Assembly: GCA_934167495.1 (NCBI GenBank)
Contig: CAKPKP010000001.1
Coordinates: 133,407 to 197,406, forward strand
Length of the DNA: 64,000 bases
Direction of reading: 5' to 3'
Origin: an uncultured Clostridia bacterium
Lineage (GTDB): Bacteria; Bacillota; Clostridia; TANB77; CAG-508
Shown: positions 17,521 through 49,030 of the stretch, one piece after another
Layout: every line of letters starts with the position of its first letter
Position numbering within the stretch: the stretch's first letter is position 1
The notes under the pieces: model-generated
Databases searched by the model: none
Seen by the model: only the letters and a program-made list of their open reading frames with translations
What the model was told of the DNA's origin: nothing
Translations under genes and position numbers: made by a program

Positions 17521-17632
17521 TAATAGGAAAATCATACAATTTTCCTATTATATAAATACTTTGTACAGAAATTTGTTATATGCAAATTTCACACACGAAC
17601 AATTAAACGTGGGCTAAATTCTACAAATTTAA
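17521..17632 (+). repeat. dispersed structured intergenic repeat, copy 1 (H1 hairpin + H2 hairpin + CACACGAACAATTAAACGTGGGCT arm)
   Basis: taataggaaa..tttcctatta hairpin, then aatactttgtacagaaatttg..caaatttcacacacgaacaattaaacgtgggct; shared with 5 other loci. Confidence 0.6.
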
Positions 17633-17645
17633 ATATAGGTGAAAT

Positions 17646-19364
17646 ATGAAATTAGAAAAGAAAAGATATTCTTATATAATAATTGCGGTAATAAGTATTA
17701 TAATGTGTTTGGGATTTAAGGACTATGATATAACACTTGCAGATGATGGATTTGTTCATTATTTAAGAGTAATTGGAACTGTAGAGTCTTTAAATGAAGG
17801 AATAATTCCACCACTTATTAGTCAATATTTTGTAAATAATTTAGGATATGGTATAAATCTATTTTATAATCCAATTGTAACTTATATACCTACTTTTTTA
17901 AAGATGTTATTGCCATTTTCATATTCTTACATATTAAAATTCTTTACATGTTTAACAGTATTTTTATCTGGTATATTTATGTTTGAATTTTGCAGAAATA
18001 TTTTTAAAAATAATAATATAGCAATAATTTCAGCAGTTTTGTATATAACAGCACCATATAGATTAACAGATATTTATATAAGATTTGCAATGGGGGAATT
18101 TACAGCATTTGTTTTTATTCCAATTTTATTATTAGGACTATATAATTTATTTTACGAAAATACAGAAAAAAGTTATTATATAACAATAGGTGCAGTAGGA
18201 TTAATTCTTACACATACAATAACTTTATATTATATGTGTTTTTTTAGTATATTATTTGTAATATTAAATATAAAGAAATTAAAAAATATAAAAATAATAA
18301 AAAAAATACTAATAAACATAGCTTTTATTGTAACAATTAGTGCATTTTTCTTAGTTCCACTTTTAGAATGTAAAATGTTTGCTAATTATGCAATATTTGA
18401 TGAAAATATAATGCAAACTAATGCAGAATGGGTAAAAGGAAAAACTATTCCTTTATCAGAAATATTTTTAAACAATGCTAAAACAGACGAAGATTTAAAT
18501 GTGTTATTTAGAATAGGAACACCATGTTTAGTATTTATTTTAATAGGAGTACTAATTTTCAAAAAAATAGATAATAAATATAAAAAATATTATATAATAA
18601 ATATGGTATTTTCATTATTATGTATATTTATGGCAAGTGAATATTTTCCTTGGGACAAGCTTCCAAATATATTATGCAAAATACAGTATCCATGGAGAAT
18701 GATAGGTTTTTTAACAGTATTTTTATCTATAGTGTGTTCAATAAACTTTTGTACATTTTTAGATATTTGTACAGTTAATAAACCAAAGGCTAAAATGATA
18801 TTTTTATGTATAATGATATGTTTAATAACAGCAAGTGGCATTGTAGATATATTGCCATATTTACAAGGTATGAGTGATAAAGAAAACAATAACGATATAA
18901 AATATGAAGAGTATATATTAAGTAATTTATCTATAGAACCAATGCAAATAAATAGGGAATATCTTCCTACAAAAGCACTTATGAATTTAAACTACATATC
19001 AAATAGAGATGAAAATGTAAAAATCATGAATGGAAATGCTAATATTAAAAACACAAAAAAAGAAAATTTAAATTATAGTTTTGAATATTCAAATGCAGAG
19101 AAAGATACAATAGTTGAATTACCATATTTGTATTATCCATATTATAATGTTAAAATAAATAATGAAAAAGTAGATATTATTGAATCAAGTAATGGATTAA
19201 TATCGTTAAAATTAAATGGTGAAGGAACTGTTACTTTAAAATATAGTTTAACTATATTTTCAAAAATAGCATATATAATTTCAATAATAAGTTTAATAAT
19301 ATTTATAATATATGTTATAAAGAAAAAAGAAAATATAAAGCTTATAGAAGAAAGAGAAAATTAA
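17646..19364 (+). CDS. GT-C fold membrane glycosyltransferase-like protein (YfhO-like)
   Basis: ~13 TM; DDGFVHYLRV motif in first extracytoplasmic loop. Confidence 0.45.
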   Translation: MKLEKKRYSYIIIAVISIIMCLGFKDYDITLADDGFVHYLRVIGTVESLNEGIIPPLISQYFVNNLGYGINLFYNPIVTYIPTFLKMLLPFSYSYILKFFTCLTVFLSGIFMFEFCRNIFKNNNIAIISAVLYITAPYRLTDIYIRFAMGEFTAFVFIPILLLGLYNLFYENTEKSYYITIGAVGLILTHTITLYYMCFFSILFVILNIKKLKNIKIIKKILINIAFIVTISAFFLVPLLECKMFANYAIFDENIMQTNAEWVKGKTIPLSEIFLNNAKTDEDLNVLFRIGTPCLVFILIGVLIFKKIDNKYKKYYIINMVFSLLCIFMASEYFPWDKLPNILCKIQYPWRMIGFLTVFLSIVCSINFCTFLDICTVNKPKAKMIFLCIMICLITASGIVDILPYLQGMSDKENNNDIKYEEYILSNLSIEPMQINREYLPTKALMNLNYISNRDENVKIMNGNANIKNTKKENLNYSFEYSNAEKDTIVELPYLYYPYYNVKINNEKVDIIESSNGLISLKLNGEGTVTLKYSLTIFSKIAYIISIISLIIFIIYVIKKKENIKLIEEREN

Positions 19365-19377
19365 AAGGAGGTAGAAA

Positions 19378-20700
19378 ATGCCAAAACCAGTTGTTGCAAT
19401 AATAGGAAAACCAAATGTAGGAAAATCTAGCTTTTTTAACTATATAGTTGGAAAAAGAATATCAATAGTAGAAGATACACCAGGGGTTACAAGAGATAGA
19501 GTATATGCAGATGCAGTATGGAGAGGAAGAACCTTTTCATTAGTAGATACAGGAGGTATAGAGCCTGAATCAGAAGATGTAATAATAGCGCAAATGAGAG
19601 AGCAAGCCAATATTGCTATTAATATAGCAGATGTTATTATATTTATAACAGACCTAAAACAAGGTGTTACTAGTAGTGATGAAGATATAGCAGTAATGCT
19701 TAGAAAATCTAAAAAGCCTGTTGTATTAGTATGTAACAAAGCAGACAATATAGGTGAGGTTCCACCAGAAGTATATGAGTTTTATAATTTAGGACTTGGA
19801 ACTCCATATCCAATCTCTGCAACTAATGCTCTTGGGTTAGGAGATGTTCTAGATGCAGTATATGAATATTTCCCTGAAAAGACAGAGGATGAAGATGATG
19901 GAAATATAATTAAAGTAGCAATAATAGGAAAACCAAATGTAGGAAAATCATCTTTAGTAAATAAAATTTTAGGAGAAAATAGAACTATAGTTAGTGATAT
20001 AGCGGGAACCACAAGAGATGCAATAGATTCTGAATTTGAAAATCAATATGGTAAATATGTTTTTATTGATACAGCAGGAATTAGAAGAAAGAGTAAAGTA
20101 ACAGAAAAATTAGAGAAATTTAGTATAATGAGAACTTTACTTGCTATAGAAAGAGCAGATGTATGTTTAATGATGATTGATGCTGAAGAAGGTGTCACTG
20201 ATCAAGATGCTAAAATATTAGGTGAAGCACATGAAGCTGGAAAAGGTATTATAATTGTTGTAAATAAATGGGATGCTGTTGAAAAAGAAACAGGAACACT
20301 AGAAAAATACAAAAAAGATATTTACAATAAGTTAAGTTATGCTCAGTATGCTCCAGTAATATTTATTTCAGCTAAAACAGGACAAAGGGTAGATAAACTA
20401 TTTGAAATGATAAATAATGTTGCAGATCAAAATGCTATGAGAGTATCTACATCAGTATTAAATGAAGTTATAAATGAAGCTGTTGCAGTAGTTCAACCAC
20501 CATCAGATAAAGGAAAAAGATTAAAAGTTCTATATGGTACACAAGCATCAACAAAGCCACCAACTTTTGTTATATTTGTAAATAACAAAGAACTATTCCA
20601 TTTTTCATATGAGAGATATCTTGTAAATTGTATAAGAAACAATTTTGGACTAGAAGGTACACCTGTTAGAATAATAGTAAGAGAAAAAAGTGAAAAATAG
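19378..20700 (+). CDS. der: ribosome biogenesis GTPase Der (EngA), tandem GTP-binding domains
   Basis: two G domains GKPNVGKSS..., DTGG/DTAG, NKAD/NKWD, C-terminal KH-like. Confidence 0.92.
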   Translation: MPKPVVAIIGKPNVGKSSFFNYIVGKRISIVEDTPGVTRDRVYADAVWRGRTFSLVDTGGIEPESEDVIIAQMREQANIAINIADVIIFITDLKQGVTSSDEDIAVMLRKSKKPVVLVCNKADNIGEVPPEVYEFYNLGLGTPYPISATNALGLGDVLDAVYEYFPEKTEDEDDGNIIKVAIIGKPNVGKSSLVNKILGENRTIVSDIAGTTRDAIDSEFENQYGKYVFIDTAGIRRKSKVTEKLEKFSIMRTLLAIERADVCLMMIDAEEGVTDQDAKILGEAHEAGKGIIIVVNKWDAVEKETGTLEKYKKDIYNKLSYAQYAPVIFISAKTGQRVDKLFEMINNVADQNAMRVSTSVLNEVINEAVAVVQPPSDKGKRLKVLYGTQASTKPPTFVIFVNNKELFHFSYERYLVNCIRNNFGLEGTPVRIIVREKSEK

Positions 20701-20722
20701 TATTGACAAAATAAAGAAAAAG

Positions 20723-48429: not shown

Positions 48430-48509
48430 TCAAAAGACAATGGGGCGGAGTTATTAATTTTAATAACGTAGTTATAGCTTAATTTAATAAAATAGGAGTG
48501 AATATTATT

Positions 48510-48842
48510 ATGAATCCATACGATAAATGTCATGAATTAGCAAGAGCTATAAGAGAAAGCAAAGAATATATAGAATATAAAGAAGTAAAAGAAGAAGTTT
48601 CAAAAGTTCCAGATTTAAAATCAAAAATTGATGAATTTGAAAAAATAAGATATGAAGAACAATTATTAGCTTTACAAGGTGAAAAACAAAATGAAGAAAA
48701 AATGAAAAAATTGCAAGAATTATATACTATATTAGCTCAAAACGAAAAGGTTAAAGATTACTTTGATAAAGAAGTTAGATTTAATTTATTAATTGCAGAT
48801 ATAAATAAAATAATAGGTGAATCAATAAAAGAGGTTCTTTAA
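48510..48842 (+). CDS. YlbF/YmcA-family regulatory protein
   Basis: MNPYDKCHELARAIRESKEY N-terminus; ~110 aa helical. Confidence 0.55.
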   Translation: MNPYDKCHELARAIRESKEYIEYKEVKEEVSKVPDLKSKIDEFEKIRYEEQLLALQGEKQNEEKMKKLQELYTILAQNEKVKDYFDKEVRFNLLIADINKIIGESIKEVL

Positions 48843-48849
48843 AAAATAA

Positions 48850-48890
48850 AAAAGGCGGGAATGCGTGATGCAGACCTGCCTTTATTTATT
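48850..48890 (+). terminator. rho-independent terminator
   Basis: aaggcggg-aatgcgtgatgcaga-cctgcctt + tatttattt. Confidence 0.5.
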
Positions 48891-49030
48891 TAATAGGAAA
48901 TTTCTTTGAAATTCCTATTAAATAAATACTTTGTACAGAAATTTGATATATGCAAATTTCACACACAAACAATTAAACGTGGGTTGAACTCTATAATTTA
49001 AAATAATGTTATAAATGGTTTGTTTTTTGC
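48891..49030 (+). repeat. dispersed structured intergenic repeat, copy 6
   Basis: aataggaaatttctttgaaattcctatt + aaatactttgtacagaaatttgatatatgcaaatttcacacacaaacaattaaacgtgggttgaa. Confidence 0.6.

Follow-up and report, generated by a model that had tools for sequence, protein, structure and literature searches.

A 64-kb window of contig CAKPKP010000001.1 from an uncultured Clostridia bacterium (64,000 nucleotides, contig positions 133,407 to 197,406) contains a dispersed family of structured intergenic repeats, referred to below as the element. Its full unit is 141 nt long and consists, in this order, of the H1 hairpin, a linker, the H2 hairpin, the H3 hairpin in variant A or B, and the end TTTTGTTC(T). 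The window has a G+C content of 26.8%, carries 54 of its 58 called genes on the + strand, and includes the sporulation gene Spore_III_AE and a GcpE open reading frame (ORF) called at 52498-53583. A contig of a Hadza gut metagenome is identical to it. The element family makes up about 16% of the intergenic DNA of the window.

Copies in the window and structure of the unit

Six loci of the family had been predicted between 17521 and 49030. All six were found at their coordinates and on the + strand when the sequence was inspected, and repeat-finding on the window recovers the dispersed family. The six loci hold seven H1 palindromes, since locus 2 consists of two tandem units. The H1 pattern ATAGGAAA-N11-TTCCTAT gives 14 matches in the window (seven sites on both strands) against 0.44 expected from shuffled sequences, which excludes chance. 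Module-specific hidden Markov models detected H1 seven times, the linker with H2 five times plus one truncated case, H3 of variant B twice and of variant A four times, all on the + strand, and found no further copies in the window.

The earlier placement of the copies directly after terminators holds, each copy abutting a hairpin and T-run of unrelated sequence; all features listed here lie on the + strand. Copy 1 (17520..17638), containing H1, the linker, H2 and a partial H3 of variant A, abuts the intrinsic terminator of rpmF (L32), a hairpin with T8 at 17497..17517 placed by sequence, annotation and the junction table. Locus 2 follows the terminator of a GntR-family gene (hairpin and T6, 23990..24027). 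It comprises copy 2a (24030..24170), a complete B-type unit of 141 nt, and copy 2b (24172..24219), an older 3'-truncated unit of H1 and linker that immediately follows the terminal TTTTGTTCT of copy 2a and runs on into the ABC ATPase gene's ribosome-binding site. Behind the terminator of a GGGtGRT-family gene (29996..30026) stands copy 3 (30028..30084), with H1, the linker and the 5' half of H2; the promoter of the sigma-factor gene comes after it. Copy 4 (33627..33773) is a complete A-type unit, in which H2 has a 5-bp extension, and is preceded by a terminator-like hairpin with a T-rich tail (33586..33624). At locus 5, the terminator GCAAATTTGC + TTTTTAAT (34750..34767) is the target of copy 5a (34768..34908), a complete B-type unit. 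Copy 5b (about 34940..35035), a 5'-truncated A-type remnant with the end of the H2 region and H3 of variant A, lies beyond it. Copy 6 (48891..49015), an A-type unit with a decayed 3' end, follows the terminator of a ylbF-like gene (48854..48887). The truncation of locus 3 that had been described is a loss of the 3' part, and loci 1 and 6 are likewise 3'-truncated. Among the downstream genes named in the original prediction, the ABC ATPase, the sigma-70-type factor, MscL, YchF and the delta subunit of DNA polymerase III stand, and the label of a GT-C membrane protein has no Pfam match behind it.

To derive the consensus anatomy, 44 distinct full-length copies, taken from many genomes, were aligned. 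The element reads (T)ATTATAGG...GTCCGCTTTTGTTC(T) and has no ORF inside. The H1 stem of 16-17 bp with a single bulged A is followed by the linker of 10-18 nt, by H2 (GAAATTTGC/GCAAATTTC) and by the stretch RYRYRCGAACAAAG. In B-type units, H3 has a GCGGAC/GTCCGC stem enclosing an AT-rich apex of about 43 nt, and the unit ends with TTTTGTTCT. Variant A has this stem swapped for GTGGGCTGA/TCAGCCCAC and retains GAACAA...TTGTTC, so that the closing helix predicted for both H3 variants is indeed common to them.

The module order and the hairpins of the original prediction are borne out by folding, the minimum free energy as RNA being -45.4 and -40.0 kcal/mol (z = -7.9 and -6.3). A fold of equal quality forms on the opposite strand (z = -6.9), and both strands thus fold far better than shuffled sequences (z between -6.3 and -7.9). 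H1, H2 and H3 are base-paired structures. In H1, changes on both sides of the stem were found in 32 cells as compared with 8.6 in shuffles, and columns 5-6/32-33 show six different dinucleotide pairs. The invariance of H2 in the alignment is partly an artefact, because copies were searched with H2. Two compensatory changes in H2 (GAAATTTG/CAAATTTC to CAAGTTTT/AAAATTTG) are present in a copy at locus L196 that was located by synteny and not through the H2 motif. A proposed extension of H2, TGCAC/GTGCA, is supported only in part. The pairing of H3 is supported by the two unrelated GC stems of variants A and B together with changes from G-C to A-T within variant A; no covariation was found in its apical part in the full-length alignment. 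On the + strand, G-U cells outnumber A-C cells (41 vs 25), which weakly points to this strand as the folded one, for RNA and DNA alike.

The six bases after H2 (alignment columns 79-84; 24097-24102 and 34835-34840 in the window) vary almost only by transitions, keeping an alternating purine-pyrimidine run; the forms observed are GCGCAC, ACGCAC, GCACAC, ACACAC, GTGCAC, GCGCGC and GTACAC. Elsewhere in the window, at 60455-60921, three tandem repeats of 168-171 nt within a GH25 lysozyme gene are its three LysM domains and are ordinary.

Strain differences and distribution

The element is mobile, with exact boundaries and with neither target duplication nor inverted ends. Its presence or absence differs between strains whose flanks are about 99% identical, which bears out the suggestion of a mobile repeat made from the sequence of the window. 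A related strain, L200, is 98.9-99.6% identical to window positions 25330-46261 and shows element differences at two sites. At site X, behind GCAAATTTGC-TTTTTAAT, the window carries the B-type unit 34768-34908 (copy 5a), a recent insertion missing in L200, where the flanks are 99.6% identical. At site Y, behind the terminator CCCTC-TTTTTAT of the Band_7 gene, L200 carries a B-type unit of 141 nt exactly where the window is empty (CTCTTTTTAT^TTTGTTCTC, 32949..32950, + strand). Junctions were computed directly from the filled and empty alleles. At X and at Y, removing exactly 141 nt from the filled allele restores the empty one, with one T ambiguous in its placement; it follows that the element has no inverted ends and makes no target duplication. 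The tail of the Band_7 terminator (32940-32958) reads CTCTTTTTATTTTGTTCTC and contains the 3'-end motif TTTTGTTCT of the element at this "empty" site, either by coincidence or perhaps as what is left of an earlier copy.

A third difference concerns the GntR-ABC spacer, which is exactly 141 nt shorter in strains L206 and L208. Recombination between the tandem units is an alternative there, the older H1 also differing at many positions. This divergence of the H1 of copy 2b (24172-24205 vs L206 7935-7970), with strain flanks 99.2-99.5% identical, suggests that the palindrome changes fast or has undergone gene conversion.

The truncated A-type copies 1, 3 and 6 are fixed across 8-10 strains (copy 1 in 8 of the 8 examined), copy 5b is shared by the window and L200, and only B-type units vary. 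A-type copies are thus old and decaying, B-type units are currently polymorphic between strains, and the B-type is the active subfamily. Comparison between species gave further sites with both states. L067 carries a unit at the rny terminator, where the window has none, and lacks one in the nrdD-nrdG spacer, which is occupied in L072; at another site, L083 has at least two tandem units and L100 has none. In the ylbF-holA spacer, the type of copy changes with the lineage: A-type in the window, B-type in L195 (HolA 96% identical), and a third variant in both L196 and L197 (HolA 79% identical). The terminator ahead of the copy also has a different sequence in each lineage. Either repeated insertion at one safe site or long retention with replacement accounts for this pattern.

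Copy 4 lies within a strain-specific segment of 0.86 kb (32952-33809) that is missing from L200 and L104; there, a single palindrome links the region of the Band_7 terminator to the mscL promoter. Besides this A-type copy, the segment contains the ORF 33134-33568, which has no Pfam match, and a palindrome of a second repeat family. The latter is a 64-nt palindrome, TGTCAATGGGGACGGAGATTTTTGACA...TGTCAAAAACCTCCGTCCCCATTGACA, found in the window at 30938-31007, 32964-33030 and 33791-33820, and also at L016 593-700, L088 5145-5250 and L104 1942-2000; other species have similar GGGGACGGAG palindromes. The mscL promoter (TTGACA-16-TATAAT with TG) takes its TTGACA -35 box from the half copy at 33791-33820. 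Upstream of copy 5a, positions 34458-34752 are a pseudogene of an M20-family peptidase (remnants with residues 1-41 and 238-279; the gene is intact with 398 aa in L200), behind whose surviving terminator this B-type copy stands. Another strain, with contig L199, matches the window at 99.1% identity beginning 16 nt ahead of the ychF start (L199 4530, window 35150), and upstream of that point it has a wholly different context with isoleucyl-tRNA synthetase and a minus-strand gene, indicating a rearrangement breakpoint at the repeat-rich mscL-ychF spacer.

Among 100 loci listed by a pattern scan with one genome per species, 61 carry the element, and profile searches gave 78 matches across the window and 100 genome loci. 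The expectation of copies elsewhere is borne out by at least 25 species-level genomes. These are metagenome-assembled genomes (MAGs) from gut samples, labelled Clostridia or Clostridium sp., and the element belongs to AT-rich, uncultured gut Clostridia. No copy and no synteny was found in 80 mscL loci of related gut bacteria (metagenomic sequence, 680 kb), which confines the family to a subset of lineages. Between species with about 80% identical proteins, element sequences are about 95% alike. In collections of viral contigs there were two true copies only, both in host DNA, by a prophage integrase or at a contig end.

In Rfam, no named family matched: searches at the gathering score (window and four loci) and at E <= 10 (33500-35200) returned only tRNA and 5S rRNA. 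BLAST of the full unit against plasmid and phage collections gave no match, and a literature search by sequence strings gave no relevant paper. As far as Rfam, these collections and the searchable literature extend, the family is previously undescribed.

An apparently unrelated repeat of about 110 nt, CCCCGTGGAGTAG-[AT hairpin]-[CAGAAATTTGCAGAGCAAATTTCT]-ACTCCACAGGG, occurs in MAGs labelled Paceibacterota or "bacterium E14 bin.214" (L004 with five copies in 8 kb, L011, L015, L021, L029, L035, L086 and L102). It lies between closely spaced genes and has the same H2 hairpin and no Rfam match; kinship to the element is unproven, because the shared H2 was forced by the search pattern.

Insertion site, candidate mechanism and alternative readings

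All 71 scored copies are intergenic, with unrelated housekeeping genes as neighbours. The element points in the same direction as the gene upstream of it in 55 of 66 cases, and as the gene downstream in 52 of 65. At most of about 50 distinct left junctions, the left end lies 5-8 nt past a hairpin of unrelated sequence, i.e., at the end of the T-tract of a terminator; an association of the element with terminators is therefore observed. Tandem copies begin right after H3 and TTTTGTT(C/A)T of the preceding copy, which is itself a hairpin with a T-run. Downstream genes often retain their own promoter past the unit, such as TTGACA-16-TATAAT ahead of mscL, and at several loci the next start codon is merely 16-31 nt away.

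In 40-48 of 51 junctions, the flanking bases -1 to -5, typically TTTAT, pair with ATAAA directly 3' of H1. Pairing with a T-run is expected behind any terminator, and the informative positions are therefore -1 and -2. Nine non-consensus junctions are fully complementary there (CT/AG four times, GT/AC and AA/TT twice each, TT/AA once), as compared with 0.94 expected, a number that was reached in none of 100,000 shuffles. In the empty alleles, position -2 (and -1, up to the ambiguous T) belongs to the flank, which is proven for the AT type only. These data suggest that the target is chosen by base pairing next to a hairpin.

The repeats are probably a non-autonomous mobile element of 141 nt that inserts in one orientation at the end of a terminator T-tract, and presumably does so as a folded single strand. 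The element would enter, without target-site duplication, at the T-tract end of an intrinsic terminator or of any hairpin with a T-run, and insertion behind its own H3 end would give tandem copies. The folded strand, probably DNA, would be moved by an enzyme encoded elsewhere, for which the best guess is an HUH-type nuclease as in IS200/IS605, IS91 or the system of repetitive extragenic palindromes (REPs) and REP-associated tyrosine transposases (RAYTs). To pick the insertion point, the 5'-A(N')AAA-3' that the element carries at the 3' foot of H1 would pair with 5'-TTT(N)T-3' in the flank, and the right end TTTGTTC may be held likewise by GAACAAA at the 5' foot of H3. The rear of a terminator might serve as a safe haven where genes and promoters are left intact. 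Consequences for the host, for instance through an added terminator-like hairpin or protection of 3' ends, would be secondary. The lack of inverted ends and of target duplication, the strand specificity, the hairpins at both ends and the apparent guide pairing together form the signature of single-strand HUH transposition.

A Pfam scan of 48 ORFs of the window revealed no transposase, reverse transcriptase or recombinase. Three more proteins (Band_7, MscL and YchF) labelled by Pfam on the matching contigs L001/L199 added no such enzyme, and clustering of all 481 ORFs in the 61 element-bearing loci, or of the neighbours, yielded no recurrent ORF. The element is therefore considered non-autonomous. 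The ORF 33134-33568, next to copy 4, was rejected as a candidate for a small HUH transposase; it has no Pfam match, and its translation contains no histidine, so that no HUH motif is possible.

Several points weigh against this reading. With no mobilising enzyme in the window or the 61 loci, the single-strand HUH mechanism is reached by inference only. The bases at -1 and -2 could travel with the element in some subfamilies, or be copied from the target, and the association with terminators could arise partly from selection instead of targeting. Orientation is biased to the G-rich strand (60 of 66 cases), and the discordant cases, at 5 to 4, do not separate transcription from replication as the cause. 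The end hairpins of IS200/IS605, imperfect palindromes bound by a single TnpA, are alike, whereas H1 (ATTATAGGAAAGTTC...) and H3 (GCGGAC...GTCCGC or GTGGGCTGA...) of the element are not, and its left guide lies 3' of the hairpin foot, unlike that of IS608, which lies 5' (PMC3201880). Finally, the presence of a copy in the ylbF-holA spacer down to 79% HolA identity could indicate long retention, and hence a host function, instead of repeated insertion.

A bolder version of the same idea, unlikely at present, is a new class of terminator-homing transposon, in which a 5-nt guide at the foot of H1 would pick the site and the enzyme or mechanism would fall outside the IS200/IS605, IS91 and group II intron systems. 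A changed guide would then mean a changed target.

It is also unlikely that the repeat is primarily an RNA or DNA element serving the host in the 3' region of transcripts (a back-up terminator, a REP-like 3' protector or an insulator), with mobility as its mode of spread. Such a role would agree with the terminator-like form of H3 (GCGGAC...GUCCGC followed by UUUUGUUCU), with the constant placement right behind terminators, with the similarity of about 95% between species whose proteins are about 80% identical, and with the ylbF-holA copy, which has been kept with compensatory changes across 79-96% HolA identity while the terminator itself was replaced. It conflicts with gain and loss between strains that are about 99% identical, with the numerous truncated copies, with empty orthologous sites in relatives and with zero copies in the 680 kb around mscL of related gut bacteria. 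Moreover, where the next gene is only 16-31 nt away there is no room for a promoter, and a strong terminator would silence that gene.

Retro-mobility is less probable still. In this case, a read-through transcript of the element would be reinserted by a reverse transcriptase encoded in trans, with the target logic of group IIC introns, i.e., a stem-loop and T-tract pairing resembling that of intron-binding site 1 with exon-binding site 1. These introns insert after terminators, recognising only 3-4 nt and a stem-loop (PMC1702495). The pairing of 5 nt of T-rich flank with the internal ATAAA, the strand-specific insertion co-oriented with transcription, the absence of target duplication, the excess of G-U over A-C cells on the + strand (41 to 25) and the truncation of several copies at one end are all compatible with it. 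However, a group II ribozyme is too big for 141 nt, neither Intron_gpII nor any other Rfam family matched even at E <= 10, and no reverse transcriptase was found in the window or the 61 loci. Furthermore, truncation affects both ends, and the losses of H1 look like slippage in ATAT repeats (L008 vs L081).

The original prediction also offered a family of small RNAs (sRNAs), which now appears very improbable. A promoter would lie in or near H1, whose 3' arm contains TATAAT, H3 would be the terminator, and the body of H2, single-stranded stretch and terminator-like H3 has the predicted shape of a trans-acting sRNA. The TAnnnT hexamer of the H1 3' arm is kept in all variants, though this conservation follows automatically from the palindrome. 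A consensus scan revealed no conserved sigma-70-type promoter on the + strand within the unit, where the -35 position would read ATAGGA, and only a weak one on the minus strand (TTGCAA-17-TATATT, 9/12). The many truncated copies, the tandem copies and the gain and loss between strains misfit a regulated gene set.

A binding array for CodY or another dimeric global regulator, for which the near-perfect palindrome of 28-34 bp formed by H1 upstream of many genes would speak, can practically be set aside: H1 arms change by compensatory substitutions instead of holding one sequence, the sites lie before and not within the downstream promoters, the half-site spacing is unlike that of the CodY box, no H1 comes within 3 mismatches of the 15-nt box AATTTTCWGAAAATT (33 matches in the window vs 29.5 expected), and the consensus loop of the family, GGAAAGTTC-TCC-GAACTTCC, departs from it still more. 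A metabolite riboswitch or leader, already judged unlikely in the original prediction, was rejected for the unrelated downstream genes, the position of the unit before promoters and the polymorphism between strains.

Comparison with known mobile systems

The original prediction of a REP-like or MITE-like repeat (miniature inverted-repeat transposable element) holds insofar as the element is a dispersed, structured intergenic repeat. It is not a strict MITE, because terminal inverted repeats are absent (the left end ATTATAGGAAAG shows no similarity to the reverse complement of the right end, AGAACAAAAGCGGAC) and so is target-site duplication (an overlap of at most 1 nt, a T, in two filled/empty pairs).

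REPs with their mosaic arrays and RAYTs (BIME-RAYT systems), BOX and bcr1 are, like the element, small, intergenic and highly repeated hairpin units. In all of them modules follow a set order, variant and partial copies occur, and many copies lie in the 3' regions of genes (PMC3333891, PMC3049150). REPs measure 20-40 nt, have a GTAG head and form inverted pairs, whereas the element has 141 nt, three different hairpins, no GTAG and direct orientation only. The pneumococcal BOX has no defined insertion site, and bcr1 of Bacillus cereus, a repeat of about 155 bp that targets TTTAT, duplicates this target. None of the three is tied to the end of a terminator T-tract.

IS91, ISCR and Helitrons likewise lack inverted ends and target duplication and have a subterminal hairpin a few nucleotides (10-12 nt) from the 3' end; in the element, H3 ends 8 nt from it. 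Helitrons insert between A and T, and both clean insertions of the element can be read in this way if the ambiguous T is placed on the right. The differences are the termini (TA...GTTC in the element vs TC...CTRR) and the location of GTTC, which lies within the element and is a flanking target in IS91; no Rep or helicase gene was seen for the element.

Group IIC introns, like the element, insert right after intrinsic terminators, along the direction of transcription and without duplication (PMC1702495). They recognise a stem-loop and 3-4 nt of T-rich 5' flank, the latter by base pairing (PMC1702495). The element shows the same combination of a terminator stem-loop and a short pairing with a T-rich 5' flank. 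The introns are ribozymes of roughly 0.7-2 kb and components of retroelements, whereas the element comprises 141 nt without an ORF, without ribozyme domains (D5/D6) detected by Rfam and without a reverse transcriptase nearby.

The element also resembles IS200/IS605 and their ORF-less derivatives, the palindrome-associated transposable elements (PATEs), which likewise lack inverted ends and duplication, insert strand-specifically 3' of a short sequence and have hairpins near both ends. In the element, insertion 3' of a short specific sequence is seen in the flank consensus TTT(A)T^ of those 40-48 junctions. In IS200/IS605, the cleavage or target sequence is read through base pairing with a short internal guide beside the foot of a hairpin (PMC3201880, PMC5934647), and the same may apply to the element. 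The orientation is likewise biased to the G-rich strand, expected to be the leading one (PMC5027513). IS200/IS605 transpose as single strands by means of HUH nucleases (PMC3201880, PMC5934647, PMC5027513). In the element, the right-hand pairing of GAACAAA (5' foot of H3) with TTTGTTC is present in 95.5% of cells and shows no covariation, and the left-hand ATAAA 3' of H1 covaries with the flank. It differs from IS200/IS605 in the left hairpin at its very end, the extra conserved hairpin H2 and the terminator T-tract as target; neither TnpA (Y1 HUH) nor TnpB was found in the 64-kb window or the 61 loci.

Small repeats without an ORF are common in bacteria, and few have a known insertion rule. 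The boundaries of the element are exact to the base, it is still polymorphic in a human gut species, and it has a precise, presumably safe-haven target at the end of intrinsic terminators. Should guide and target truly pair, it would represent a compact, possibly reprogrammable targeting module; it also hints at a mobilising enzyme in uncultured Clostridia. In the annotation of gut Clostridia MAGs, the family should be masked or modelled, since its copies can be mistaken for sRNAs or riboswitches and can break assemblies, as with the scaffold gap in L083. A target at the terminator end has been documented before mainly for group IIC introns, and target choice by pairing mainly for IS200/IS605. 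The element fits neither of them as a member; among small non-autonomous bacterial repeats, it is set apart by an insertion rule that is unusually well defined, directed at terminators and possibly based on a guide.

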